This document shows, piece by piece, positions 3,387 through 36,250 of a stretch of DNA of 36,250 bases; positions within the stretch are counted from its first letter, which is position 1, and each line of letters starts with the position of its first letter. The position numbers and the translations under genes were made by a program. Under the pieces are notes generated by a model. The model saw only the letters and a list, made by a program, of their open reading frames with translations. It was not told the origin of the DNA and did no database searches. Source of the stretch: a virus (lineage: Duplodnaviria; Heunggongvirae; Uroviricota; Caudoviricetes). The DNA lies in the IMG/VR virus record IMGVR_UViG_2870490042_000002, one strand, 5' to 3'.

Positions 3387-3662
3387 ATGAGTATCCGTAT
3401 CGAGATAAATCATCAGTATGTAGTTACAAGCGATCGCTACCAGTTCATTTTGCAGGAAAAGAAAGTGGCGACTGCTGGAAAAAATAAAGGTAGCGAATGG
3501 CTTGATACTGTCGGGTATTACCCGACGATTCAAAAACTGATTTCTGGTCTGGTGCTACATGACCTTTTAAATGGCGGTGCTGATAGTTTTGCGGCGTTGG
3601 GTGAGCAGGTCGAGCAGTTGGGACTGCAATGTCAGACCGCGTTTTGTGCTGATGGCCGTTGA
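3387..3662 (+). CDS. Hypothetical early-region protein (91 aa)
   Basis: Strong RBS AGAAGGAGA upstream. 3' end overlaps the start of gene A by 11 nt. Confidence 0.55.
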   Translation: MSIRIEINHQYVVTSDRYQFILQEKKVATAGKNKGSEWLDTVGYYPTIQKLISGLVLHDLLNGGADSFAALGEQVEQLGLQCQTAFCADGR

Positions 3663-5943
3663 GACTCGGGGGCGTATTGCCCCCTCGCTAGCCCTGCCAA
3701 TATCTAAGCGCACCGGCGATACTTTCGTTGGTGCTTATCCCTGGAATGCTCCCCGCGCTGCCATTGGCCGTGACAGACCCCTTACACGTGCCGAATTCCG
3801 TCAGGTGCAAGGTGTTTTATACCGGATTGACCGCCTGCCTTTCTTTCTTAAGACGTTGTTTACTTCCCGTTATAACTTCATTCGTCGCACAAAGAGCCCG
3901 CTCGGGGCGCTCTATTTCCTGAAAAACACCTTTGAGCGGAAGCTGTTGCCGCGTCTTGAGCGCGTTAACGAGCTGTGCGGGATGAATGAATCTGCGTCGA
4001 TTGGTTTCTTGTCTGAGCGTGACGAATATGCGCGCTTGCCTGATATGAATGACAAAGAGCTGAAAAAATTTGCGGCCAGAATTGCCGCGCAGCTCTGGCG
4101 TAAATACGAGGAACTCAGCGACGAATGGGCTGAGGCATTCGGCGGTAAAGAGACCCTTTTCACCGATGAGGCGCAGGTGCACATATATGGTCAGGTGGCT
4201 GGTGTTGCACGCGCGTTCAACTTAACCCCGCTCTACTGGAAAAAATACCGTAAGGGTCAGATAACGATCCGCATGGCGTTTTCCGCTATTTCCCGTCTGA
4301 TAAAAGATGATTGGTGGGTTAACCAGCTCAAGGCGCAGCGTATGCGCTGGCGCGAGGCGCTGCTTATCGCTGCCGGTGAAGTCAACAAAGACCGTTCACC
4401 TTACGCCAGCAAAATGGCGATCCGCGAGGTTCACTCGCGCCGGCTGGCTAATCTCGAATACCTGAAATCCTGTGAGCTGGAAAACAAAGTTACCGGCGAA
4501 CGTATCGACCTCATCAGTAAAGTCATGGGGAGTATTTCAAACCCTGAAATACGCCGTATGGAGCTGATGAACACCATTGCCGGAATTGAACGCTATGCGG
4601 CCAGCGTTGGTGATGTGGGAATGTTTATCACGCTGACCACGCCGTCGAAGTATCACCCGACCCGACAGGTCGGCAAAGGTGACAGCAAAACGGTGCAGCT
4701 CAATCACGGCTGGAACGAAACCGCATTCACCCCTAAAAACGGCCAGCGCTATCTGTGCCGAATCTGGAGCCTGATGCGTACCGCTTTCAAAGATAACGAT
4801 TTGGAAGTGTATGGGATGCGCGTTGTCGAGCCGCACCACGACGGCACGCCACACTGGCATATGATGCTTTTTTGCAAACTCAGTCAGCGTAAAGCTATCA
4901 ACGAAATTATGCGTCGTTATGCCCTCAAAGAGGACGGACGCGAAAAGGGCGCGGCAAAACAGCGCTTTGAGTCGCGTCACCTTAATCAGGGGGGCGCGGC
5001 GGGTTATATCGCCAAATACATTGCCAAAAATATCGACGGCTACGCGCTTGACGGTCAGCTCGATCACGATACCGGCAAATCTCTGAAAGATACGGCCGCA
5101 GCCGTAACCGCATGGGCGTCTACATGGCGTATCCCTCAGTTTAAACCGATTGGCCTCCCGACAATGGGCGCTTACCGCGAACTGCGTAAGCTGCCGCGCG
5201 GGGTGAGTATCGCCAGCGAGTTTGACGACCGTGTCGAGGCCGTCCGGGCTGCTGCAGATGAGGGGGAATTTGACCTGTACATCAGCGCGCAGGGTGGGGC
5301 AAACATGCAGCGTGATGCTCAGGCGGTCAGGGTCGCCCGTAAGGTGACGGATGAGGTAAACGAATACGAGGAGGATATCGAGAAAGTGGTCGGTATTTAT
5401 GCCCCTCATCTTGGGGTGAGCCGCGTACATGTAACCCGTACAGCGGAATGGCGCATAGTTCCAAAGGTTTTGGCCGTTGAGCCTTTGACCTTAAAAAGCG
5501 GCTTTGCCGCGCCTCGGAGTCCTGTCAATAACTGTGGAAAGCTTGCCGACGGTGGCGATCCAGTTATGACACCTACACCGTCTGAGCAAGCCGCAGCGGT
5601 GTTAAATTTGATTGAGGCCGGGGTTATCGGCTGGAATGAGCCAGACGTCATGAAGGTTCTTAACGGCGCGTTAAAAGCTGGCGCACCTCGCAATAATCGC
5701 CAGCAAAGAAGCAATGCGCCACTCAAAACGAGCGAGCAAGCTCCATCAGCCAGGATGACAAAACCAGAAAGGGATCGCGTGGCGAAAATTCGTTTCGATT
5801 TGGCTCAGGAGGGCATTACCCCGGAACGGTGGGCGCTCGAAGCGCTGGCGCGTGGGGCAACGGTGATTTATGGCGATAAAAAAATCAAATACGCGGCTGC
5901 TGATGAGTGGCCGGGATTCTCAATTCAAGAGGAGCAGAATTAA
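3652..5943 (+). CDS. A: Rolling-circle replication initiator endonuclease, P2 gpA-like (763 aa)
   Basis: ORF 3571..5943 trimmed to MAVETRGR (P2 A starts MAVKASGR as recalled). Long colinear blocks include EPHHDGTPHWHMM and GGAAGYIAKYIAKNIDGY. Confidence 0.9.
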   Translation: MAVETRGRIAPSLALPISKRTGDTFVGAYPWNAPRAAIGRDRPLTRAEFRQVQGVLYRIDRLPFFLKTLFTSRYNFIRRTKSPLGALYFLKNTFERKLLPRLERVNELCGMNESASIGFLSERDEYARLPDMNDKELKKFAARIAAQLWRKYEELSDEWAEAFGGKETLFTDEAQVHIYGQVAGVARAFNLTPLYWKKYRKGQITIRMAFSAISRLIKDDWWVNQLKAQRMRWREALLIAAGEVNKDRSPYASKMAIREVHSRRLANLEYLKSCELENKVTGERIDLISKVMGSISNPEIRRMELMNTIAGIERYAASVGDVGMFITLTTPSKYHPTRQVGKGDSKTVQLNHGWNETAFTPKNGQRYLCRIWSLMRTAFKDNDLEVYGMRVVEPHHDGTPHWHMMLFCKLSQRKAINEIMRRYALKEDGREKGAAKQRFESRHLNQGGAAGYIAKYIAKNIDGYALDGQLDHDTGKSLKDTAAAVTAWASTWRIPQFKPIGLPTMGAYRELRKLPRGVSIASEFDDRVEAVRAAADEGEFDLYISAQGGANMQRDAQAVRVARKVTDEVNEYEEDIEKVVGIYAPHLGVSRVHVTRTAEWRIVPKVLAVEPLTLKSGFAAPRSPVNNCGKLADGGDPVMTPTPSEQAAAVLNLIEAGVIGWNEPDVMKVLNGALKAGAPRNNRQQRSNAPLKTSEQAPSARMTKPERDRVAKIRFDLAQEGITPERWALEALARGATVIYGDKKIKYAAADEWPGFSIQEEQN

Positions 5944-6924: not shown

Positions 6925-6943
6925 GGCGAGGCGGGGTAAGCAT
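6925..6943. other. cos site (19-nt cohesive-end sequence GGCGAGGCGGGGTAAGCAT)
   Basis: 17 of 19 identity to the P2 cohesive end GGCGAGGCGGGGAAAGCAC as recalled. Located on the Q side of the packaging genes. Confidence 0.6.
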
Positions 6944-7014
6944 TGCGCGCGCCTGTCAAAGATATTAAGATTGTCTCAAAATCGATTGATTTTATTGAAC
7001 TAATGGAGCTAGGA

Positions 7015-8571
7015 ATGATTAAGGGTATAGGTCTTCAAAACTTCAGGAGCTTTGTCAACAAAACGTTTATTGATTTAAAACCAATTACAGTATTTGTTGG
7101 TAAGAACAGCAGTGGTAAAAGTTCCCTATTGCGCACATTTCCTTTACTTCGTCAATCTGTAGAAGAAAATACTACTGGCCCAATACTATGGTATGGGAGA
7201 TATGTGGATTTTGGCGATTTTACAGATGTACTTTCCCGAAAGTCTGAAAAAAAAGAAATTACGTTTAGTTTTTCACTCTCAATTCCGCCAGAGGTTTCAC
7301 AAAGATATACATATTATCGTTCTACTGATTTAGCAAAGCAACCAACAGATATTGAAGCAGAGTTAACTGTTTACTCTAAAGATAAAAAAACAAAAACGAA
7401 AACGATTAAGCTTATATTGGCTGATTTAACAATATTTATTTCAATGGATGAGAGTAGTAATGTTAAATTACTCATTGAATCAGATGATAAAACAATAGAG
7501 CGTGATGGGATAATAGCTAAAAATCTTGGGCAGTTCATACCAAATCTAATTTTGAAGGGTAAGGAAGACAGTCCTCCTCCAAGCACATCATTCTATTTGA
7601 GACATTCTAGGCATGACAGGGCGTTAGAATTGTCATTTATTGATTCAGCGGCGAAATATATAAAGAAATATTTCCATACTAAATCTGATATAAATCAAGT
7701 GACAGAGGCATTCAAAAGAATTGGCTTTATACCCAAAGCGTACGCTAGTAAATTAGTTGCTTTTCTATTTAAGGAACAAAAAGTTTTTAGTAGAAACTTT
7801 GAATTTCAACATGATGAAATAATGAATGAGTTATATCCATTTATAATTGGATGGAATATTAATAATCTTATAGATATAATAAATACATCCTTGTCAGATT
7901 CATTCAGAAATGTAAAGTACATAGCTCCACTGCGTGCTACATCAGAAAGATTTTATCGTTTTCAAGATTTACAGGTTAATGAGATAGATCATACTGGTTC
8001 CAATCTTGCAATGCTTTTGAATTCATTAAGACCGGCTGATAAATCAAAATTTGAAGATTGGACAAAGTTAAATTTTGATTTCATTATCAAGGTTGAACAA
8101 AGTGGCTCTCACTTTGCAATTTTAATAAATACCGGTGAAAATAGTGAGAACTATAATGTTAGTGATATGGGGTTTGGTTATTCTCAGGTTTTGCCGATAG
8201 TTACAGCCATTTGGCTTGAGACAGAACGTCGTGCTACCACGGTTAGAAAACCTATAACATTTATCATTGAGCAGCCAGAATTGCATTTACATCCGTCATA
8301 TCAGCATAATTTAGCAAGTATTTTTGCAAAAGTAGTAACTAAAGCAAAAGAAAATAATGTAGATTTGAAGATAATTTTTGAGACACATAGCCAGACCATG
8401 ATTGAAGCACTTGGTGAATATATTGAGGAAAATGAAAGTCTTTCACAGGATGATATTTCAATACTGGTATTTGAAAAAGATGATAAGCAGCAGACTATAG
8501 TTAAGAAATCTTATTTTGACGAGAATGGTTTCCTAAAAAATTGGCCGGTTGGCTTTTTCTCGGGTAAGTAG
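7015..8571 (+). CDS. ABC/OLD-type ATPase (AAA_15/AAA_21-like), AriA-like candidate
   Basis: ORF 6943..8571 trimmed to ATG 7015 (RBS GGAG at 7004-7007; the longer ORF would run through cos). Walker A VFVGKNSSGKSS, Walker B-like FIIEQPELHLHP, H-loop FETHS. AT-rich. Confidence 0.8.
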   Translation: MIKGIGLQNFRSFVNKTFIDLKPITVFVGKNSSGKSSLLRTFPLLRQSVEENTTGPILWYGRYVDFGDFTDVLSRKSEKKEITFSFSLSIPPEVSQRYTYYRSTDLAKQPTDIEAELTVYSKDKKTKTKTIKLILADLTIFISMDESSNVKLLIESDDKTIERDGIIAKNLGQFIPNLILKGKEDSPPPSTSFYLRHSRHDRALELSFIDSAAKYIKKYFHTKSDINQVTEAFKRIGFIPKAYASKLVAFLFKEQKVFSRNFEFQHDEIMNELYPFIIGWNINNLIDIINTSLSDSFRNVKYIAPLRATSERFYRFQDLQVNEIDHTGSNLAMLLNSLRPADKSKFEDWTKLNFDFIIKVEQSGSHFAILINTGENSENYNVSDMGFGYSQVLPIVTAIWLETERRATTVRKPITFIIEQPELHLHPSYQHNLASIFAKVVTKAKENNVDLKIIFETHSQTMIEALGEYIEENESLSQDDISILVFEKDDKQQTIVKKSYFDENGFLKNWPVGFFSGK

Positions 8572-8573
8572 TT

Positions 8574-9686
8574 ATGTTGATTAATATCGAAAATGCGACA
8601 CCTGAGAAGGTGCTAAATAACTCATTTGCCATAGCGGTTGAAAATATACTTCGGGCATTCGCTGAACAAAAACACTTGGTTATAGGGGCAAGGGTTTTTT
8701 TTAAAACTATTATCAATGATCAAAGCGGGCTTTATAGCCTTTCATCAAAAAGTTACGCGCAAGAGGCTTTGTCGGGTCTAACAGAGTACTATGCTATCTT
8801 GGATCAGGTCTCATTTTATGTATCTGTCGACTTTAATATTAGTGATAAATCATTTAAATGGGTTCAGATCGGTGAATCTTTTAAATTTGTTTGTGGTCCA
8901 TTGTATTTTAATGACTCGGCACAATTGCAAAAAACGAAAATAGTATGTGAAAATCCTTTGGATTCTGATTTTTTTAAGGTTATAGCGGCTCATTATGCCG
9001 AAGGTATTAACTTATCTCGCTGCGAAATGGGTTTTATCGCTCTAAATGGCGGTGGGGGCAGTACTAAGGATATATTCGAGCGTGCAATTCAAAATAATGA
9101 GATAGTTTTTTGTATTGTGGATAATGACAAAAAACATCCTGGAGCCCCATTCGGAGGTACTTGCTCACATTTTTTGGGCTCACAAATTACTCGCTCAGGT
9201 TTCGTGGAGATTTTAGATGTACATGAAATAGAATCTCTAGTTCCTTTATCGACAATTGAAGATGTATTAAGAAGTCAAAGTCAATTGCAACAAAAAGAAA
9301 AATCTCTCATTTTCTTTAAGCATCTTTGCTCCGTAGATGAATCAGTAAAATTTTATATTGACCATAAAAAAGGTTTTGATTTTAAAACAGCCCTTGAACT
9401 CGATCGAAAACATGGTGCATATTGGCGTCCGATATTAAAGAAGCTTGATATAAAATATGATTGTGAGTATATCGAATCAAAACGTTGTAGCTGCAACGCT
9501 GCTTGTGTAAGTTATGATGGTTTTGGAGAGAATTTGCTCAGCAATACATTGAAATATATACAAAAGGGAAGTTTAAAAAAATATAATCCTCACCTAACAC
9601 CAGTGCTTTCTGATAAATGGTATAAGTTAGGTAAGAATTTCTTTAGTTGGAGTTGTGGTCCATATAAAAAAGCAAGGGTTGGTTAA
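8574..9686 (+). CDS. Partner protein of the ATPase (370 aa), possible Toprim/DUF4435-like nuclease (AriB-like), unconfirmed
   Basis: Starts 2 nt after the ATPase stop, so co-operonic. Contains hydrophobic-E (AIAVEN) and a DxD-type motif (IVFCIVDNDKKH). No HNH or other clear fold recognised by eye. Confidence 0.7.
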   Translation: MLINIENATPEKVLNNSFAIAVENILRAFAEQKHLVIGARVFFKTIINDQSGLYSLSSKSYAQEALSGLTEYYAILDQVSFYVSVDFNISDKSFKWVQIGESFKFVCGPLYFNDSAQLQKTKIVCENPLDSDFFKVIAAHYAEGINLSRCEMGFIALNGGGGSTKDIFERAIQNNEIVFCIVDNDKKHPGAPFGGTCSHFLGSQITRSGFVEILDVHEIESLVPLSTIEDVLRSQSQLQQKEKSLIFFKHLCSVDESVKFYIDHKKGFDFKTALELDRKHGAYWRPILKKLDIKYDCEYIESKRCSCNAACVSYDGFGENLLSNTLKYIQKGSLKKYNPHLTPVLSDKWYKLGKNFFSWSCGPYKKARVG

Positions 9687-9781: not shown

Positions 9782-10789
9782 TCAAAGTGAATATTTTTTA
9801 AATCTTATAACTTCCATTTCTAACCAGTTGTTTAGTTCTTTGAACCGTTCCTGTAAAGGAGTTAACTCATTTCGGACAAACACTTGTGCAGCTTTTACAA
9901 CATCACCAAAACCGCCAACATTGTTAGGCATAATTCCCATCATTTGTGGTGGTACCCTATGAGCACTCAACAAATCTTCTGCACTAACCTTTTTGATATT
10001 GAAAAAATCATCTTTCGTGGCGACTTCACTCAACGGCACAATCTTGATGCCATCCGGTTTGCCGTTGGGCGCGTAGAAAAACAAGTTTTTGAAATTCCCG
10101 AGTCCTTTCGAGTCACGCATCGCGTTGCGGAGCGACTCGACGTCGGTACTGCTTTGCGCGGCGTCGGTGACGTACATGATGTACCCCGCGTGCGCGCCGT
10201 TCTGGTAATACTTGCGGCGAAACAGCGTAGCGGACTCATTCAGCCAGGCAGAATTAAGTGCGCTCAGGTATTCCGGCATCCCGTACAACTCCTGATTGAT
10301 ATCGGGCTCAAGCAGATGGAAAACGGAATCGGGTGCGAACGGGTGCGGCTGGGTGTAGTTCGACACGTACCAGTAAACGCCATCTTCGACACCCCGGCGG
10401 GTGTATTTAGCCGGTGAGGTTTCCAGTTTTAAGAGCTGGCCGGTGACGCTCATGCGCTTCTCAAGATAGCCGTTGGCAAAGACCAGATAATCGAGCACCA
10501 GGCGGCTGAAGTCCTGACGTGACAGCAACGGGTGCGGAATGTAGGTGCTCGCCAGAATGTTACGTTTCACGTAAATCGGCGAGCTGTGATGAACGGAGGC
10601 GCGCAGGCTTTTTGCCAGCCCCGAGAAGTTGACCGGCGGCTCGTACCATTTCCCGTTATTGATACACTCTACGTAGTCGAGAATGTCGCGGCGATCCAGA
10701 ACCGGGGAAGGCACACCAAAGGTGAACGCCTCCATTTTTTGCGGTGTGCTGGCGGTCATGTTGGCGGGTTTCTTCTGTCGTTTTTTCAT
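9782..10789 (-). CDS. Q: Portal protein, P2 gpQ-like
   Basis: 335-aa ORF immediately downstream of P on the reverse strand. Position and size match P2 Q. Confidence 0.85.
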   Translation of the reverse strand: MKKRQKKPANMTASTPQKMEAFTFGVPSPVLDRRDILDYVECINNGKWYEPPVNFSGLAKSLRASVHHSSPIYVKRNILASTYIPHPLLSRQDFSRLVLDYLVFANGYLEKRMSVTGQLLKLETSPAKYTRRGVEDGVYWYVSNYTQPHPFAPDSVFHLLEPDINQELYGMPEYLSALNSAWLNESATLFRRKYYQNGAHAGYIMYVTDAAQSSTDVESLRNAMRDSKGLGNFKNLFFYAPNGKPDGIKIVPLSEVATKDDFFNIKKVSAEDLLSAHRVPPQMMGIMPNNVGGFGDVVKAAQVFVRNELTPLQERFKELNNWLEMEVIRFKKYSL

Positions 10790-17537: not shown

Positions 17538-17967
17538 CGCCGTCCCTCAGATCCTGAATAACCCCGAGATGATGCGCATCTTTGCCGATGAGGGGAATAT
17601 CGATGCGCGTCTCGCAGACTCGCTGTCTCATGAAAAGAATTACACCCTGAATGTGATTGTCTGCGATTTTGTGGGCGACCCTGACCTGATTTTCGTGCCG
17701 GTGGCGGTGTGGCTGCGTGAGAACCAGCCGGATATCTGCACGCTGGATGAGGGGCGCAAAAAGGGCTATCGATTCCAGATGGATTTAAACGACGGTGATA
17801 ATGTGGATATCAGTATCAGCCTGCAACTCACCGAGCGCACCCTCGTCAGAGATGAAAACGGCGCGTTACACGTCAGCTATGCGCCTGAACCGCCATTACC
17901 TGAGCCTGTCACGCGACCGACTGAGCTGTATATCAATGGCGAGCTGGTGAGTAAGTGGGATGAATGA
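17500..17967 (+). CDS. R: Tail completion protein R (155 aa)
   Basis: ORF 17416..17967 trimmed to MQKMKSLRKAL. Colinear with P2 R as recalled, including C-terminal EPVTRPTELYINGELVSKWDE. Confidence 0.85.
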   Translation: MQKMKSLRKALNDAVPQILNNPEMMRIFADEGNIDARLADSLSHEKNYTLNVIVCDFVGDPDLIFVPVAVWLRENQPDICTLDEGRKKGYRFQMDLNDGDNVDISISLQLTERTLVRDENGALHVSYAPEPPLPEPVTRPTELYINGELVSKWDE

Positions 17968-18406
17968 ATTTAAGCCTTTTGATGACAAACTTGCGGGGTT
18001 GATTGCGGCAATATCACCGGCGGGTCGGCGTAAGCTGGCCGCTGAAATAGCAAAGCAACTGCGCAGATCGCAACAGCAACGCATCAAACAGCAAAAAGCG
18101 CCTGATGGCACGCCGTATCAGGCGCGAAAACGCCAGCCGCTCAGAGCGAAGAAAGGGCGTATTAAGCGGACGATGTTTCAGAAGTTGCGAACGAACCGCT
18201 ACATGAAAGCCAGAGGCCGCGATGATGCAGCGGTGGTCGAGTTTACCGGCAAGGTGCAACGTATTGCTCAGATTCATCAGCTCGGACTTAAAGACCGGCC
18301 AAACCCACATGCTCAGGACGTGCAATACCCAGAACGGCAGTTGCTTGGTGTTGACTTTGGAGACAATTTGTTGATTGAAAAATTGGTTATTGAACATCTA
18401 AATTGA
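17960..18406 (+). CDS. S: Tail completion protein S (148 aa)
   Basis: Size and position match P2 S. Overlaps the R stop. Confidence 0.85.
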   Translation: MNEFKPFDDKLAGLIAAISPAGRRKLAAEIAKQLRRSQQQRIKQQKAPDGTPYQARKRQPLRAKKGRIKRTMFQKLRTNRYMKARGRDDAAVVEFTGKVQRIAQIHQLGLKDRPNPHAQDVQYPERQLLGVDFGDNLLIEKLVIEHLN

Positions 18407-18455
18407 CTATTTACGGTTGCAAGTCTCATAAGACGAATCCTAGCTTACCGACCTT

Positions 18456-18484
18456 TTGACCTTAATCATAAAAAATGGTAAATA
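18456..18484 (+). promoter_or_regulatory. Sigma70-like promoter of the S-V cargo cassette
   Basis: -35 TTGACC (18456-18461), 17-bp spacer, -10 TAAATA (18479-18484). RBS AAGGA lies 7 nt before the ATG at 18542. Confidence 0.4.
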
Positions 18485-18541
18485 TTGTTGTTGTCTGCTA
18501 CCTCGTTGATTTTTTAAGCTTTTACTTACAAGGATTGAAGC

Positions 18542-19591
18542 ATGTCTAACGATGATAAAACATTGAATTTATTCCCCATAGATTATCCATTTGAGACTTT
18601 ATGTTCTAGGATGAAGTCCAATCCCATCAAACTAAAACTGAATCCAGACTTTCAAAGAAAGTACAAATGGGATCAGGACGGATGGCTGCGATCTTCAAAA
18701 TTCATTGAATCTTGTTTAATGCGTATTCCTCTTCCATCTTGTTACTTTGCAGAAGATGATAGCGGCAATCATATTGTAATTGATGGTGTTCAGCGATTAA
18801 CCACAATACAGAAATTTTTTGATGACGAGTTCGCTTTGGAGGGAATGACTACATTTAAAGAGCTTGAAGGGAAAAAGTTTTCTGAATTAGGATCTCTACG
18901 TTCAGAGTTAGAGTCGACAACAATAAGATGCATTGTTCTAAGAAAAGAAAATCCCAAAAAATTAATAAGAGAGATATTTTCTAGACTCAATCAGGGGGCA
19001 GTTAAACTTTCTGATCAAGAAATAAGACATGCGTTATATCCGGGAGGGTTTGATGAATTATTAGAAGAGTTAGGTAATATTGATGCCATTAAAAATTTTG
19101 GTTTGGCGGAAACAACTACAGTAAAAAGAGATAGTCGTGAGCCAGACGAACAAGTTTTGCGTTTTTTTGCATTTTATGAAGATAACTTTTTTGATTACTT
19201 TGATAGCTCCTTGAAAGAATTCTTGGATGATCATATGGAAAAATTTTCAGACTTAAAAGATGATGAACTGAATATTATGAGGGAGAGATTCAAAACATCA
19301 TTATCTAAGTGTGAAAAAATATTTGGTGAAGATGTATTTACAAACCCTACAGTTAGGAGAAAACGTAAAGGGTTAGTTCATTATGACATTTTAATGCCTA
19401 CAATTGGCAAGTTAAATGATGATATTGTAAATGAAAAGTCCGAACAAATACGGAATGCTTGGTTTACTCTTTGTTCAAGTGCTGAGTTCAAAAAAACTTT
19501 ATCAGGTGGGCTACAGAATAAGAGTTCGGTGATGAAGCGTAGGGCTAGTTGGGTGGCACTTCTTAAGGAAGTTATTGATGGAAAATACTGA
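18542..19591 (+). CDS. DUF262 (ParB/Srx-like nuclease/NTPase fold) protein, 349 aa
   Basis: Hallmark N-terminal block FQRKYKWDQDGWLRSSKFIESCLMRIPLPSCYF...IVIDGVQRLTTIQKFF (DGQQR-type motif). No DUF1524/HNH tail recognised. AT-rich. Confidence 0.8.
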   Translation: MSNDDKTLNLFPIDYPFETLCSRMKSNPIKLKLNPDFQRKYKWDQDGWLRSSKFIESCLMRIPLPSCYFAEDDSGNHIVIDGVQRLTTIQKFFDDEFALEGMTTFKELEGKKFSELGSLRSELESTTIRCIVLRKENPKKLIREIFSRLNQGAVKLSDQEIRHALYPGGFDELLEELGNIDAIKNFGLAETTTVKRDSREPDEQVLRFFAFYEDNFFDYFDSSLKEFLDDHMEKFSDLKDDELNIMRERFKTSLSKCEKIFGEDVFTNPTVRRKRKGLVHYDILMPTIGKLNDDIVNEKSEQIRNAWFTLCSSAEFKKTLSGGLQNKSSVMKRRASWVALLKEVIDGKY

Positions 19592-20156
19592 ATACTATGA
19601 TGGATATCGTTCATTATTTTTATCCTTAAAAGAAATTATTAAGGAGACGGAGCAACAGGCTATCCTTGAGGAAAATGAATTCTTCAATAAGAACATTAAT
19701 TTTTTTGTTAAATCGTATCTTATTACACTCTGCACTTATTTAGAGTCGTATTTGACTGAGGTTGCAACATGGCACTGCGATACCATCAATCGCAGGCTCA
19801 AAGCAGCCTGCTTGCCACACAATTTTTTGCTTTGGCGAGTCAAAAAAGATGTTAAAGATAAGGAGTTGAAATATATAGATGCTGATTTAAAGGTTGAGAA
19901 AAGTGAGGTGTCGGATAGCCTGTCTGGTAATCCTTACAAGACGATTAAGGCATTTTCTTATTTGGGTGTTAATCTTTTGAATTCGGCGGAATTTAATGCG
20001 AATAAGGATGTTGTGAATGCAGTGGTTGTAAAGAGAAATAACATTATTCATCATAACGACAATGCAAATGATATTAGTCTCACTGACGTAAGTGGTTATG
20101 TAGATCTGTTTGTATCCTATATGGCTGCGATAGATAATATGGTTTGTGGAAAATAA
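19578..20156 (+). CDS. HEPN-like protein with Rx4H motif (candidate RNase), 192 aa
   Basis: ATG at 19578 has RBS AAGGAAG and overlaps the upstream gene by 14 nt. Candidate catalytic motif in VVVKRNNIIHHNDN (R-x4-H). Family assignment from memory of HEPN-like families, unverified. Confidence 0.65.
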   Translation: MENTEYYDGYRSLFLSLKEIIKETEQQAILEENEFFNKNINFFVKSYLITLCTYLESYLTEVATWHCDTINRRLKAACLPHNFLLWRVKKDVKDKELKYIDADLKVEKSEVSDSLSGNPYKTIKAFSYLGVNLLNSAEFNANKDVVNAVVVKRNNIIHHNDNANDISLTDVSGYVDLFVSYMAAIDNMVCGK

Positions 20157-20171
20157 TGTTTTAATATTCGT

Positions 20172-20195
20172 GGGGCTGTTTGATAATTTAGCCCC
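20172..20195 (+). terminator. Weak hairpin downstream of the cargo cassette
   Basis: GGGGCT / AGCCCC stem with a 12-nt loop and no strong T-run. Confidence 0.3.
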
Positions 20196-20419
20196 ATATC
20201 TGCTTTGGTAAGGGTTCGGAAAATAATTTTATATCATGATGAAATGTCTATGAGATTTATTTCATTTCTAAGTTTTGCTATTTGATAAATCCTTTATGTG
20301 GCTCTCATTAATCTAATGGGATGAATTATACTGATATTTTAAAGCTGATAATTGTTGTTTCATCTCCCATAAAACTCCACTTGATTGCCACTAGCCTTTC
20401 CAGTCGGCATCCTTTCCAC

Positions 20420-21061
20420 ATGAATAATTTAAATTCTTTACAGGAAATCGCTCGGGCGATCCGCAACCTTATCCGCACCGGCATTGTGACCGACGTCGAC
20501 CCCGTCGAGGGGCTTTGTCGTGTACAGACCGGCGGGATGCAAACCACCTGGCTTAACTGGCTGACCTGCCGCGCCGGCCGCTCGCGGGTGTGGTGGGCTC
20601 CTTCTGTTGGCGAGCAGGTGCTCATTCTTGCCATTGGTGGCGAGCTGGACACAGCCTTTGTGCTGCCCGGCATTTTCTCTGATGACCATCCTGCGCCGTC
20701 GGCCTCGTCCGATGCGTTTCACGTCACTTTTCCTGACGGGGCGGTTATCGAGTACGAACCCGAAAACGGGGCGCTCACCGTATCCGGTATTAAAACCGCC
20801 GACGTTACCGCGTCGGAGTCCATTACCGCCATCGTGCCGGTGGTGCTAGTGAAAGCCGAAACCCGCATTACCCTCGATACTCCCGAGGTGGTGTGTACCA
20901 ACAAGCTCATCACCGGCACGCTCGAGGTGAAAAAAGGCGGGACGATGTCGGGGAACATCGAGCACACCGAAGGGAAATTTACCTCAAACGGCGTGCAGGT
21001 CGATGCCCACGATCATGGTGGCGTGGAGCCGGGCGGAAACTGGACGAAGGGGGTCAAATGA
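20420..21061 (+). CDS. V: Baseplate assembly/spike protein V (213 aa)
   Basis: ORF 20321..21061 trimmed to MNNLNSLQEIARAIRNL. Size and position match P2 V. Confidence 0.85.
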   Translation: MNNLNSLQEIARAIRNLIRTGIVTDVDPVEGLCRVQTGGMQTTWLNWLTCRAGRSRVWWAPSVGEQVLILAIGGELDTAFVLPGIFSDDHPAPSASSDAFHVTFPDGAVIEYEPENGALTVSGIKTADVTASESITAIVPVVLVKAETRITLDTPEVVCTNKLITGTLEVKKGGTMSGNIEHTEGKFTSNGVQVDAHDHGGVEPGGNWTKGVK

Positions 21062-31942: not shown

Positions 31943-32464
31943 ATGTCAAAGCCAAAATACCCTTTTGAAAAGCGCCTTGAAGTCGTGAATCACTACTTCA
32001 CAACTGATGATGGTTACAGGATCATCTCGGCACGTTTTGGTGTCCCCCGAACCCAGGTCAGGACATGGGTTGCCCTCTATGAAAAACATGGAGAAAAAGG
32101 TTTAATTCCCAAACCTAAAGGCGTTAGTGCTGATCCAGAGTTGCGTATTAAGGTCGTGAAAGCTGTGATCGAGCAGCACATGTCCCTTAATCAGGCTGCT
32201 GCTCACTTTATGCTTGCTGGTAGTGGTTCTGTAGCCAGGTGGCTGAAGGTCTATGAAGAGCGCGGAGAAGCTGGTTTACGCGCGCTCAAGATTGGCACCA
32301 AAAGAAACATTGCAATATCAGTTGATCCAGAAAAAGCGGCATCAGCATTGGAGCTGTCAAAAGACCGACGCATTGAGGATCTTGAAAGGCAAGTTCGATT
32401 TCTTGAAACGCGGCTTATGTATCTAAAAAAGCTGAAAGCCTTAGCTCATCCCACGAAAAAGTGA
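31943..32464 (+). CDS. insJ: IS150 OrfA (InsJ, 173 aa, HTH)
   Basis: MSKPKYPFEKRLEVVNHYFTTDDGYRIISARFGVPRTQVRTWV. IS3-family OrfA with C-terminal leucine zipper. Confidence 0.85.
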   Translation: MSKPKYPFEKRLEVVNHYFTTDDGYRIISARFGVPRTQVRTWVALYEKHGEKGLIPKPKGVSADPELRIKVVKAVIEQHMSLNQAAAHFMLAGSGSVARWLKVYEERGEAGLRALKIGTKRNIAISVDPEKAASALELSKDRRIEDLERQVRFLETRLMYLKKLKALAHPTKK

Positions 32465-33312
32465 AAGTACTCAACGAGCTAAGGCAGTTTTATCCTCTTG
32501 ATGAGCTTCTCAGGGCTGCGGAGATACCGCGCAGTACGTTTTATTATCATCTAAAGGCTCTCAGCAAGCCTGACAAGTATGCGGACGTTAAAAAGCGTAT
32601 TAGTGAGATTTATCACGAGAATAGAGGCCGATACGGATACCGTAGGGTAACGCTGTCTCTTCATCGAGAAGGGAAACAGATTAACCATAAAGCTGTTCAG
32701 CGCCTGATGGGAACCCTCTCACTTAAAGCAGCGATTAAGGTCAAGCGATACCGCTCTTACAGAGGAGAGGTAGGGCAAACCGCCCCTAATGTTCTCCAAA
32801 GAGATTTCAAGGCTACGCGGCCAAACGAGAAGTGGGTTACCGATGTTACTGAATTTGCAGTCAATGGGCGCAAGCTGTATTTGTCTCCAGTAATAGATCT
32901 CTTCAACAACGAAGTTATTTCTTACAGCCTTTCGGAAAGACCAGTGATGAACATGGTTGAGAATATGCTCGATCAGGCATTCAAAAAGCTTAATCCTCAC
33001 GAGCATCCTGTTCTGCACTCTGACCAGGGATGGCAGTATCGTATGAGAAGATATCAAAATATCCTTAAAGAACATGGTATTAAACAAAGCATGTCCAGAA
33101 AAGGCAATTGTCTGGATAATGCTGTGGTGGAGTGTTTCTTTGGAACCTTAAAGTCGGAGTGTTTTTATCTTGATGAGTTCAGTAATATAAGCGAACTGAA
33201 GGATGCTGTTACGGAATATATTGAATACTACAACAGCAGAAGAATTAGCCTGAAATTAAAAGGTCTGACTCCAATTGAATATCGGAATCAGACCTATATG
33301 CCTCGTGTTTAA
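32461..33312 (+). CDS. insK: IS150 OrfB (InsK, DDE transposase catalytic domain)
   Basis: 283-aa ORF in the -1 frame relative to OrfA, GTG start at 32461. IS3-family DDE transposase core. Confidence 0.85.
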
Positions 33313-33627
33313 CTGTCCAACTTTTTGGGGTCAGTACACGAATGCGGGGCTTTTTGCAACTTTTAGATCAGTTATGTTAAGTACATTTCCGTCGGCAAAG
33401 TGCCAGGAGCGGGTTCTAGAGAGTGACTAACGTTAGTTATATGTGTAAAATTCCTTAAAAATAAGAAGGATATATATCCATGACAGCAATTGCATATTGG
33501 ATTAACTGAGAATCAATTGAGAAATTTTTGGGGGGGCAAAAAATAAACTAGCTAATTAAATTTTTATAAATAACGAATATAAGACTGCAAGCCATTTAAC
33601 AAAAGTTTATAAATAAAGGAGTCAGTT

Positions 33628-34479
33628 TTGAACAATATCCCCATATCTACTCAATGGACTTTAGACGCTACGGGTGAAGTTGGACGCTCATCAGTAAATT
33701 CTGTTTATATGATTATATGTCCTGCGACCGGCTCGAAAGGATCTGGTTTTTTAATAGATAATGGGTTAATAGTAACGAACGAGCATGTTATCACTGGATG
33801 CTCTACAAATCAGATTTTCGCAATTTCAGCTTATGGACAGAAGATTCCAATTTCTCAAAAATGGATAGATTCTGATCGCGATTTAGCTGTGCTGAGACCT
33901 GCCATTACCCAGACTGGTGGGCTAAGTATTGTTAAGGATAATGATCTTAAAGTTGGTGAATCAGTAACAACTTGGGGATACCCATTAGGATACAACGGTC
34001 CTGCACCGTTACTATCCGTTGGTTATCTAGCAGGATTTAACTCATACCAAACCGCCAAGGGACAAAAAAAACATCTAGTGGTAAATGGGGCATTTAACTC
34101 AGGAAATTCTGGTGGAGCTCTTTTAAAAGCTTCAGATAATAAAGTAATAGGTATTGTAGTGAGTAAGCATGCTCCTATCAGTCAATACCATCAATCAGCT
34201 ATTGAAGCTTTGTCTGAAAATATGAGTGGCGTCACCTATACCGCTACTAATGACGCTGGAGAAACTAAAAGTTTTGTAGAATCTCAAATTGTAGCAGAAT
34301 TATTGATTCATATGAGAAGTCTAACTCAAGTTATGATTGGAGAAGCAATTGCAGCAGAGGAATTACTTTCGATGCTTAGCGAAATTGACTTGAGTCCACC
34401 ACAATCTATGTCAAGAAATGCCTTATGTCATTGCGGGAGTGGAAAACGCTTCAAAGAATGTCATGGAAAGATATCCTAG
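33628..34479 (+). CDS. Trypsin-like (S1) serine protease with C-terminal SEC-C zinc-binding motif; cargo gene
   Basis: TTG start with RBS AAGGAG 5 nt upstream. Triad candidates His in VTNEHV, Asp in DLAVL, Ser in GNSGGAL. C-terminal CHCGSGKRFKECHG. No signal peptide. AT-rich. Confidence 0.75.
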   Translation: MNNIPISTQWTLDATGEVGRSSVNSVYMIICPATGSKGSGFLIDNGLIVTNEHVITGCSTNQIFAISAYGQKIPISQKWIDSDRDLAVLRPAITQTGGLSIVKDNDLKVGESVTTWGYPLGYNGPAPLLSVGYLAGFNSYQTAKGQKKHLVVNGAFNSGNSGGALLKASDNKVIGIVVSKHAPISQYHQSAIEALSENMSGVTYTATNDAGETKSFVESQIVAELLIHMRSLTQVMIGEAIAAEELLSMLSEIDLSPPQSMSRNALCHCGSGKRFKECHGKIS

Positions 34480-34628
34480 TAAGTACTTATATCAGTCTGA
34501 TAATGGCTCTTCAAATACAAAAGACTTCACTTACTCTGCCGTCATCTCTGCTCCTCGCTTATTGCAGACGGTCAAAAGCTTACAAGCTGTTGACTAGATG
34601 TGTTCTTACATTGTCAGTTAAAACAAAA

Positions 34629-34651
34629 GCCCCGCAAATGCGGGGCTTTTT
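34629..34651 (+). terminator. Rho-independent terminator after the protease cargo gene
   Basis: GCCCCGC-aaat-GCGGGGC followed by TTTTT. Near-identical to the terminator after ogr that is split by IS150. Confidence 0.55.
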
Positions 34652-34712
34652 GTATCGATGTGGTCAATGTGTGGACATTGATAGAAATAAATCCATTTAT
34701 TTCAGTAATTTA

Positions 34713-34739
34713 CATGCAAAAAATAAGCCCGTGTAAGGG
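34713..34739. repeat. attR core (22-bp direct repeat of attL core plus ATGCA), also the 3' end of cyaR
   Basis: Exact repeat of 478-499. Preceded by TGTGGACA (34668-34675) and TATCGATGTGGTCAATG arm sequence. Confidence 0.6.
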
Positions 34740-34888: not shown

Positions 34889-36250
34889 TCACTTACCGTG
34901 TGGGTTACGCGTGGTTTCCCCGGAGAAATTACGCATCAGCAGAGCGTAATTGAGCTCAAGATCCTGCGGGACCGGGAGCCACACAGTATAACCATCGCCT
35001 GGTGCGACCGGCATCGCTTCACCTTTGGCGTTTTCCATGTGCTCAAGGGTAAAGTTAATGTTGCCTTGCGGCGTCATCAGCTCAAGGCTGTCGCCAACGG
35101 AGAATTTATTTTTCACCGCTACCGCCGCGAGGTCCCCCTTGCGCTCACCGGTAAACTCACCAACAAACTGCTGGCGGTCAGAAACTGAATAACCGTATTC
35201 GTAGTTCTGATAATCGTCGTGAGTATGACGACGCAGGAAACCTTCGGTATAGCCACGATGCGCCAGACCTTCCAGAGTTTCCAGCAGGCTGGTATCGAAC
35301 GGTTTGCCCGCAGCGGCGTCATCGATAGCTTTACGGTAAACCTGTGCGGTGCGTGCGCAATAGTAGAAAGATTTAGTACGGCCTTCGATTTTCAGCGAAT
35401 GCACGCCCATTTTGGTCAGGCGTTCTACATGGGCGATGGCGCGCAGATCTTTCGAGTTCATGATGTAAGTGCCGTGCTCATCTTCAAACGCGGTCATATA
35501 CTCGCCCGGACGCTGGGCTTCTTCGATCATAAACACTTTGTCGGTTGGCGCGCCGATACCCAGCGTCGGCTCAACATTTTGCACCGGAATCGGCTCGTAC
35601 TTGTGTACGATGTTGCCAACGTCATCTTCTTTCCCTTCCTGGACGTTGTACTCCCAGCGGCAGGCGTTGGTGCAGGTACCCTGGTTCGGATCGCGCTTGT
35701 TGATATAGCCAGAGAGCAGGCAGCGACCGGAGTAGGCCATGCACAGTGCGCCGTGAACGAAGATCTCGATCTCCATATCCGGCACCTGATTGCGGATCTC
35801 TTCAATCTCTTCCAGCGACAGCTCGCGAGAGAGGATCACGCGGGTCAGGCCCATTTGCTGCCAGAATTTCACCGTCGCCCAGTTTACGGCGTTAGCCTGC
35901 ACCGAGAGGTGGATCGGCATTTCAGGGAAGTGCTCACGCACCAGCATAATCAGCCCTGGATCGGACATAATCAGCGCATCCGGCCCCATTTCCACCACCG
36001 GTTTCAGGTCACGGATAAAGGTTTTCAGCTTGGCGTTGTGCGGTGCAATGTTGACCACGACATAAAACTTTTTCCCCAGCGCGTGGGCTTCATTGATGCC
36101 GAGCTGAAGATTTTCGTGGTTGAATTCGTTGTTGCGCACACGCAGGGAGTAACGCGGCTGGCCCGCATAAACAGCATCTGCGCCATAAGCGAAAGCGTAA
36201 CGCATATTTTTCAGCGTTCCCGCCGGGGAAAGGAGTTCCGGTTTAAACAT
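34889..36250 (-). CDS. yegQ: U32-family peptidase-like protein YegQ (tRNA hydroxylation protein), 453 aa; host gene
   Basis: Full-length ORF ending at the window edge; MFKPELLSPAGTLKNMRYAFAYGADAVYAGQPRYSLRVRNNEF. Sequence and position next to cyaR match E. coli yegQ as recalled. Confidence 0.85.
   Translation of the reverse strand: MFKPELLSPAGTLKNMRYAFAYGADAVYAGQPRYSLRVRNNEFNHENLQLGINEAHALGKKFYVVVNIAPHNAKLKTFIRDLKPVVEMGPDALIMSDPGLIMLVREHFPEMPIHLSVQANAVNWATVKFWQQMGLTRVILSRELSLEEIEEIRNQVPDMEIEIFVHGALCMAYSGRCLLSGYINKRDPNQGTCTNACRWEYNVQEGKEDDVGNIVHKYEPIPVQNVEPTLGIGAPTDKVFMIEEAQRPGEYMTAFEDEHGTYIMNSKDLRAIAHVERLTKMGVHSLKIEGRTKSFYYCARTAQVYRKAIDDAAAGKPFDTSLLETLEGLAHRGYTEGFLRRHTHDDYQNYEYGYSVSDRQQFVGEFTGERKGDLAAVAVKNKFSVGDSLELMTPQGNINFTLEHMENAKGEAMPVAPGDGYTVWLPVPQDLELNYALLMRNFSGETTRNPHGK

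Follow-up and report, generated by a model that had tools for sequence, protein, structure and literature searches.

Why would a prophage related to phage P2 carry about two kilobases of AT-rich DNA in the midst of its tail genes, and what might the two genes encoded there do? The question is raised by a stretch of 36,250 nt from IMG/VR (record IMGVR_UViG_2870490042_000002; Caudoviricetes), referred to throughout as the window. The window is a P2-like prophage of Escherichia coli, with genes in the order int, A, (cargo), Q, P, O, N, M, L, X, Y, K, lysB/C, R, S, (cargo), V, W, J, I, H, G. The second of these cargo sites, between tail gene S and baseplate gene V, holds two genes that we call gene A and gene B, which encode a DUF262 protein and a HEPN protein, respectively. 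We consider it likely that this island is a horizontally acquired, self-contained, two-gene anti-phage cassette of the PD-T4-2 type, residing in the S-V (orf30) slot of the prophage. Its most likely function is the prophage-encoded exclusion of incoming phages, by a mechanism that we infer.

A two-gene island between S and V

The cargo island, or moron, at the variable S-V (orf30) locus spans positions 18407-20351 (plus strand, as are all features of the S-V region given here) and is 1.95 kb long. It is set apart by its guanine plus cytosine (GC) fraction, which is 0.32-0.37 across 18501-20500 versus 0.52-0.60 on both flanks, and its slot is empty or differently filled in relatives. The left flank is the gene for the tail completion protein gpS (17960-18406), the last gene of the upstream late operon (PHROG phrog_26, E = 1.8e-46; Pfam Phage_tail_S in identical public loci). 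The right flank is the gene for the baseplate spike and assembly protein gpV (20420-21061), the first gene of the V operon (PHROG phrog_6142, E = 5.5e-36; Pfam Phage_base_V in identical loci). Two open reading frames occupy the gap, both oriented like late genes, and the list of open reading frames includes no third gene in the island. An Rfam scan of 18300-20500 returned one sub-threshold chance match only. The island is not bordered by direct or inverted repeats at its ends, and thus there is no sign of a transposon.

An initial annotation of the window had already described this AT-rich insertion, and its account of where the insertion lies and what it contains agrees with the GC profile, the PHROG matches of the flanks and the open reading frames. 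It had, however, extended the insertion from 18407 to 20419. Whereas 18407-20351 is indeed cargo, the last 68 nt (20352-20419) belong to the phage backbone, as they form a conserved late-promoter block of the V operon, TTGTTGT..CATAAAAC..GATTGCC..GGCATCC, that is collinear with the entire 71-nt S-V intergenic region of empty-site relatives. At those empty sites, TTGTTGT..CATAAAAC..GATTGCCGCTGGCC..GGCGGCATCC..ATG comes directly after the stop codon of S. The P2 record places the activator site of pV at the equivalent position. Because 20352-20419 matches the empty-site block, the cargo fills precisely the interval that separates the stop codon of S from the V promoter.

Gene A (18542-19591; 349 amino acids; RefSeq WP_029392307.1) encodes a DUF262/ParB-like NTPase domain followed by a C-terminal helical domain that is presumed to be of the ParBDB type. 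The sole Pfam match of its product is to GmrSD_N/DUF262 (E = 4e-23). All three motifs that define DUF262, QRxxxW, DGxQR and FxxxN (PMC12065111), are present as Q38, R39 and W43; D81, G82, Q84 and R85; and F146 and N150, and all are invariant in an alignment with 54 homologues. The codons of the nucleotide-binding motif DGxQR (D81-G-V-Q-R85) occupy 18782-18796. Neither the gene A nor the gene B protein has a Pfam match to DUF1524, and the earlier description of the first gene as a DUF262 protein lacking a DUF1524/HNH tail is therefore accurate. The closest folds to gene A are those of BrxU and SspE, and its matches to the PADLOC models for SspE and HEC-06 are weak and limited to the N-terminal motif. 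A public assembly collection contains the exact gene A protein in 2,568 of its indexed blocks.

Gene B (19578-20156; RefSeq WP_029392305.1) encodes a standalone, RNase-type HEPN protein of the RiboL-PSP family (Pfam HEPN_RiboL-PSP, E = 1e-17). It is 192 amino acids long when counted from an ATG that is also the start used by gene callers on public genomes. The predicted structure is all-helical, with a predicted local distance difference test score (pLDDT) of 92.5, and its top structural matches are HEPN toxins from HEPN-MNT toxin-antitoxin pairs. Residues R153, N154 and H158 of the sequence KRNNIIHH are invariant in 69 homologues, and the codons of this Rx4H motif (R153-N-N-I-I-H158) lie at 20034-20051. 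The invariance of the arginine and histidine argues for an active RNase, and with a four-helix fold in the model plus a conserved Rx4-6H motif, gene B would be classed with HEPN proteins of the active-RNase type. Thus, the initial annotation was also right to see in the second gene a small HEPN protein with an Rx4H motif. RefSeq names the two products simply 'DUF262 domain-containing protein' and 'HEPN domain-containing protein'.

The two genes overlap by 14 nt, each has a good Shine-Dalgarno sequence, and they are translationally coupled. A search of the Protein Data Bank by single sequence and by profile found no homologue of either protein. The gene B family is small, with 131 clusters at 50% identity in a single-sequence phmmer search of 1.84 billion representatives, and its members are mostly standalone proteins of ~190-210 amino acids. 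Five short clusters among these 131 were looked up, and none of the five was from E. coli.

Resemblance to PD-T4-2 and other known systems

The architecture of this cassette, as far as sequence comparison reveals it, is that of PD-T4-2, a validated two-gene anti-T4 system from E. coli ECOR65 that is listed as 'DUF262, HEPN' (Vassallo 2022; PMC9519451 supplement). Deletion of PD-T4-2 from native ECOR65 restored plaquing by T4 (Vassallo 2022). Its B protein matches HEPN_RiboL-PSP in HHpred at 97.8% (PMC9519451 supplement), and the HEPN family PF18735 is listed under PD-T4-2 in reviews (PMC10952713). The A protein of ECOR65 is RCO39066.1, and its partner is unannotated. As in PD-T4-2, the cassette consists of two adjacent, co-oriented genes in the order A then B. 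Furthermore, gene A encodes a DUF262 protein of ~350 amino acids without DUF1524 that matches the PADLOC model PD-T4-2_A over nearly its full length (E = 9.5e-43; model positions 45-354 of 363), and gene B encodes a small standalone HEPN protein of the RiboL-PSP type. The systems differ in the size of the B protein, which has 192 amino acids here versus roughly 168 as derived from published coordinates. In addition, blastn searches of 5,426 complete E. coli genomes revealed no similarity at the DNA level between the cassette and other E. coli loci.

The initial annotation had found no named system that corresponds to the pair. This view cannot be maintained, because PD-T4-2 matches in architecture, which largely removes the novelty of the arrangement. 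Moreover, the RiboL-PSP-HEPN family was tabulated as 'operon with ParB' by Anantharaman et al. in 2013 (Table 1; PMC3710099). That entry describes the same association, a ParB-superfamily gene beside a RiboL-PSP HEPN gene with a conserved Rx4-6H motif, although it is a one-line result of comparative genomics that carries no function, phage context or mechanism. Our survey of the literature found no paper that names a different DUF262 plus HEPN system. The suggestion that the two genes form a defence pair is, by comparison, backed both by this homology and by the cargo found at the S-V site in relatives.

Several other systems share parts of the arrangement. Gene A resembles NsnA of the Menshen system in having a ParB-DUF262 domain and a C-terminal helical domain, which in NsnA is called ParBDB and is proposed to bind DNA (PMC12065111). 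Menshen, however, is encoded by adjacent genes in the order nsnA-B-C, and its NsnB ATPase and NsnC effector (inPIN plus nuclease) are both required (Millman 2022; Li et al. 2025). Here, the genes that follow gene A are the HEPN gene and then gpV, with no adjacent NsnB and no NsnC, and HEPN is not described among Menshen effectors. The type IV restriction proteins GmrSD, BrxU and SspE differ in that their DUF262 is fused to or paired with a DUF1524 His-Me nuclease, whereas the cassette encodes, in place of a fused DNase, a separate protein of the HEPN RNase type. Likewise, the partner of the HEPN protein is a DUF262 NTPase of the ParB/Srx fold rather than the minimal nucleotidyltransferase of HEPN-MNT toxin-antitoxin pairs. 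The cassette resembles the P2 morons (orf30, old/tin and Z/fun) as AT-rich, nonessential cargo at a junction between operons. Its slot is that of orf30, although orf30 itself is a single opposite-strand gene of no known function, and the genes here are different.

The gene pair and its slot in other genomes

Relatives of both genes that are ~60-66% (A) and ~47-53% (B) identical occur in Pseudomonas aeruginosa, Geoalkalibacter, Stenotrophomonas and viral contigs, and a closer pair in Pantoea is 85% (A) and 74% (B) identical. Adjacency of A and B is kept in all four bacterial genera and in four viral contigs. The order is A then B in all intact cases, and in the four bacterial genera the genes as called overlap by 8-14 nt. 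Neither an ATPase nor any other constant partner accompanies the pair at the compared loci. Further A and B matches that carry an organism name come from Burkholderia, Aeromonas, Vibrio and Halomonas, and a tblastn search of phage records returned relatives at no more than 34% identity. The Pantoea pair resides in a chromosomal island with McrBC-like, SNF2 and CdiA/CdiI genes and an adjoining integrase fragment, and the Geoalkalibacter pair has an integrase and the toxin-antitoxin genes ParE/ParD and Unstab_antitox as neighbours. The cassette also occupies the S-V slot in two diverged P2-like lineages. Thus, the two genes move together, in prophage slots as well as in chromosomal islands, across several proteobacterial classes, and the proposal that it is a self-contained cassette is supported. 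In every paired comparison of the same loci, gene B diverges faster than gene A (47-89% versus 59-94% identity). Such a difference is compatible with an effector or interface that is subject to an arms race, but it proves nothing.

Of 5,426 complete E. coli genomes, 30 carry a copy of the 3.1-kb S-to-V stretch at 100% identity, always on the chromosome, and many of these 30 are NDM-type clinical isolates. Both megablast and distant blastn searches with the cassette found nothing in this collection beyond those 30 copies at at least 99.8% identity. One strain, E. coli 5CRE51 (L106; NZ_CP021175.1, 3316069-3318668), has ISKpn26 at the extreme 5′ end of the DUF262 gene. Gene A is annotated there with 342 amino acids and is cut off from its promoter and first codons; the HEPN gene is intact and the strain is viable. 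In another, E. coli 2024CK-00535 (L107; NZ_CP157243.1, 1724428-1725396), IS903B lies ~40 nt upstream of gpV, inside the V-promoter block. Expression of the baseplate and tail fibres is probably defective in this prophage copy, whose cassette is intact.

The cassette also has a candidate promoter of its own. A putative sigma70 promoter at 18456-18484 combines TTGACC (18456-18461), a 17-nt spacer and TAAATA (18479-18484), with TGn before the -10 element, as read from the sequence. The block TTTTGA..TCATAAnAAATGGTAAAnATT that contains these elements also occurs upstream of the Pantoea homologue, where TTTTGAttTT..TCATAAgAAATGGTAAAgATT corresponds to the same -35/-10 region and the surrounding upstream DNA is unrelated. 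Conservation of this block despite different flanks supports a real promoter, and hence a cassette equipped with its own. Downstream of gene B, at 20170-20197, is a hairpin with a 9-bp stem, a 10-nt loop and no T-run. It is indeed as weak as had been reported (-14.7 to -16 kcal/mol, z = -1.9), and a terminator scan of the island found nothing. By our reading of their sequences, the Pantoea and P. aeruginosa cassettes terminate with a G+C-rich hairpin and, behind it, a T-rich tail.

The initial annotation had regarded this as an unusual insertion site, on the understanding that S is directly followed by V in P2. This is mistaken on both counts. Between S and V, the P2 record shows the O-operon terminator, the nonessential opposite-strand gene orf30 and the pV activator-binding site, and only then V. 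The orf30 locus is one of three named foreign-gene sites of P2-like phages, together with the Z and TO regions (PMC3091744), and phage R18C carries a different open reading frame there (PMC6823313). We surveyed 80 IMG/VR relatives of gpS, of which 76 have both S and V. The S-V gap is 71-72 nt, and hence empty, in 15 of the 76 and 759-4,185 nt long in the other 61, with a median of 1,516 nt over all 76. The occupied slots contain 51 protein clusters in 36 arrangements. Three of the 76 carry the present cassette, two others encode distant DUF262 proteins, and cargo other than this cassette is present in 58.

Representatives of this cargo match the Pfam families AAA_15/AAA_21 ATPases, SIR2_2, AIPR, PIN, DUF4435, Schlafen-type helicase and GmrSD_N, and the PADLOC models PtuA, AriA, GajA, AbiLi and mad3. 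Together with the empty sites, these matches indicate that the S-V slot is a defence-rich cargo hotspot and that the cassette genes are not structural components. It is also clear from the 15 empty slots that P2-like relatives do not all carry the same genes as conserved structural parts, an outcome the initial annotation had entertained. Many of the 51 clusters (loci L010-L089), the first scanned representative included, have no Pfam or PADLOC match at 1e-5, and so the slot holds unannotated candidates as well. Three relatives (L058, L064 and L082; locus coordinates ~7445-9235) have two copies of the V-promoter block on either side of the cargo, one directly downstream of the stop codon of S and the other immediately upstream of V, which suggests an exchange of cargo through recombination at or beside that block.

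More distant pairs of similar design are found in this slot and elsewhere. At L021 (7718-9392), the S-V slot encodes a 351-amino-acid DUF262 protein of the DGQQR type followed by a 204-amino-acid protein with an RNRAAH motif; the former is 28% identical to gene A and aligns with it at 97.6% probability in hhalign. At L081 (7556-9192), the slot encodes a 191-amino-acid protein followed by a 349-amino-acid DUF262 protein. Distant DUF262 plus HEPN pairs also occur in the other two P2 hotspots, namely in P24B2, between A and the genome end, and in Klebsiella phage ST16-OXA48phi5.4, after the tail fibre genes. When the gene B family was compared with the HEPN-like partners of such pairs by hhalign, the Klebsiella phage protein gave a weak 74% probability and the L021 protein gave nothing. 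The divergence of these partners is too great to connect them by sequence.

The prophage carries other cargo in addition to the S-V island. Another AT-rich island, with a GC fraction of 0.32-0.36, occupies hotspot 1 (6943-9686), which has gpA (3571-5943) on one side and the portal gene (9782-10789, minus strand) on the other. It encodes a 542-amino-acid AAA_15/AAA_21/DUF3696 ATPase (6943-8571), whose top PADLOC matches are NsnB (6.5e-55), PDC-M55A and AriA, and a 370-amino-acid protein that has no Pfam or Protein Data Bank match and matches PDC-M55B at 2e-4. These genes are probably another two-gene defence candidate, with no complete known system matched. In other E. coli genomes, the identical S-V cassette is accompanied by different hotspot-1 cargo, a protein kinase and a PP2C phosphatase, which indicates that the two islands assort independently. 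Past the ogr-side end of the prophage (31943-34736) are an IS3-family insertion sequence (HTH_28 and rve; 31943-33312) and then an AT-rich stretch that encodes a 283-amino-acid protein with Trypsin_2 and SEC-C motifs (33628-34479) and a 103-amino-acid open reading frame. The host gene for a U32 peptidase follows (34889-36250, minus strand). The 283-amino-acid protein matches the C-terminal part of RT-Protease_XI (7e-21) and PDC-M35A (6e-13) in PADLOC, and its gene may be further cargo or a defence gene at the prophage edge.

Competing explanations, proposed action and significance

A number of observations weigh against the assignment of this cassette to the PD-T4-2 type. On the B side, the link consists of a shared Pfam family only: gene B has no match to PADLOC PD-T4-2_B at E ≤ 1, and none of its 69 family members has one at E ≤ 10. 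Indeed, gene B has no match at all in PADLOC, NCBIfam or PHROGs, and PADLOC would not call a system at this locus. Among the profile searches that the initial annotation had put forward, Pfam identified both domains and PADLOC matched gene A only (PD-T4-2_A and NsnA). Even gene A scores higher on NsnA of Menshen (6.6e-80; 267 bits; model positions 51-383 of 385) than on PD-T4-2_A. Its DUF262 domain is poorly modelled by AlphaFold2, with a pLDDT of 36-65 over residues 1-160. As for the promoter, the AT-rich stretch contains 6 promoter-like sites versus 6.9 expected from shuffles, and a consensus match at this frequency proves nothing by itself. The TTGACC-17-TAAATA promoter noted initially therefore stands as far as its elements and the Pantoea block are concerned, but it is no better than chance in the scan. 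Finally, the RNase activity, the RNA target and the trigger are all predictions.

Could the pair instead be a toxin-antitoxin or addiction module that serves chiefly to stabilise the prophage or island, with a constitutive HEPN RNase kept in check by the DUF262 protein? The overlap and co-translation of the genes, the structural proximity of gene B to HEPN-MNT toxins, and the ParE/ParD and Unstab_antitox genes beside the Geoalkalibacter pairs all speak for such a module. However, a 349-amino-acid protein with invariant NTPase motifs that is more conserved than its partner is unlike the typical small, fast-evolving antitoxin. The viability of 5CRE51, where ISKpn26 separates gene A from its promoter, implies that HEPN alone is tolerated if gene A is silenced there, which as a single genome is weak evidence. 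The homologous architecture of PD-T4-2 scores as phage defence, and the two roles can coexist. We assign a low probability to addiction as the main function. We give less credence to a DNA-targeting system akin to type IV restriction, in which the ParB-like protein is the nuclease and the HEPN protein only a regulator or adaptor. Although DUF262 forms the N terminus of GmrSD, BrxU and SspE, of which the latter two are the closest folds of gene A, and ParB-like domains are listed among restriction-modification-type DNases (PMC3710099), cutting in these three systems is carried out by the DUF1524/HNH domain (PMC10952713) that is missing here. The catalytic residues of HEPN, moreover, are those that are invariant, and this explanation is quite improbable.

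The top PADLOC matches of gene A to NsnA and of the hotspot-1 ATPase to NsnB raise the further prospect of a split or hybrid Menshen system, with gene A working alongside the ATPase and the 370-amino-acid protein ~10 kb away. We rejected this on linkage grounds. The nsn genes are adjacent in Menshen and in separate operons here, pairs in Pantoea, Pseudomonas, Geoalkalibacter and Stenotrophomonas have no such ATPase, and the kinase and phosphatase genes found in hotspot 1 beside the identical cassette make the idea very improbable. A morphogenetic or lysis-timing function might be suspected from the location between late operons and from the late-gene orientation. Given the empty-site relatives, this structural reading was rejected also; unrelated genes in most other slots, foreign composition and close homologues in non-phage chromosomal islands reduce its probability to almost nothing. 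An anti-phage cassette of the PD-T4-2 type remains the explanation that we favour.

How might such a cassette act? We hypothesize that both proteins would be made from the sigma70 promoter in the lysogen, and that the DUF262 protein would be the sensor and switch, in line with the role of DUF262 in GmrSD, BrxU and SspE (PMC12065111, PMC10952713). With its C-terminal domain, it might bind incoming phage DNA or sense its modification, possibly the hypermodified DNA of T-even phages. Nucleoside triphosphate (NTP) binding or hydrolysis would then change its state, and this change would release or activate, and so license, a HEPN dimer that cuts RNA and halts translation. The superinfecting phage would be blocked directly or by abortive infection, to the benefit of both prophage and host.

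A bolder proposal, to which we attach a modest chance, concerns the clade as a whole, whose A proteins are ~60-66% identical across gamma-, beta- and deltaproteobacteria. These systems could couple a sensor of DNA or DNA modification in the style of type IV restriction (a DUF262 NTPase plus a DNA-binding domain) to RNA cleavage by HEPN. Alternatively, a protein of the ParB/Srx fold could regulate HEPN covalently and in an NTP-dependent manner, like MNT-HEPN. Separately, the same proposal holds the S-V slot to be a third rich, largely unannotated defence hotspot of P2-like phages. If true, DNA sensing that is read out as RNA cleavage, or covalent control, would give DUF262 systems a signalling logic that none of them has so far been shown to use.

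For specialists in phage defence, nothing here is surprising. The cassette is, judging from its genes, a further candidate example of the ParB-DUF262 plus RiboL-PSP-HEPN type. Model sets of the PADLOC kind match gene A and miss gene B, and surveys therefore likely under-count such cassettes. Because the S-V (orf30) slot carries many defence-like and unknown gene sets, it is a useful place for finding new systems. Systems of the PD-T4-2 type are validated whereas their mechanism is blank, and the present cassette, which is compact, highly conserved and equipped with a candidate promoter of its own, occurs in clinical lineages of E. coli, including strains that carry NDM. It would be a convenient model for the control of a HEPN RNase by a DUF262 NTPase.

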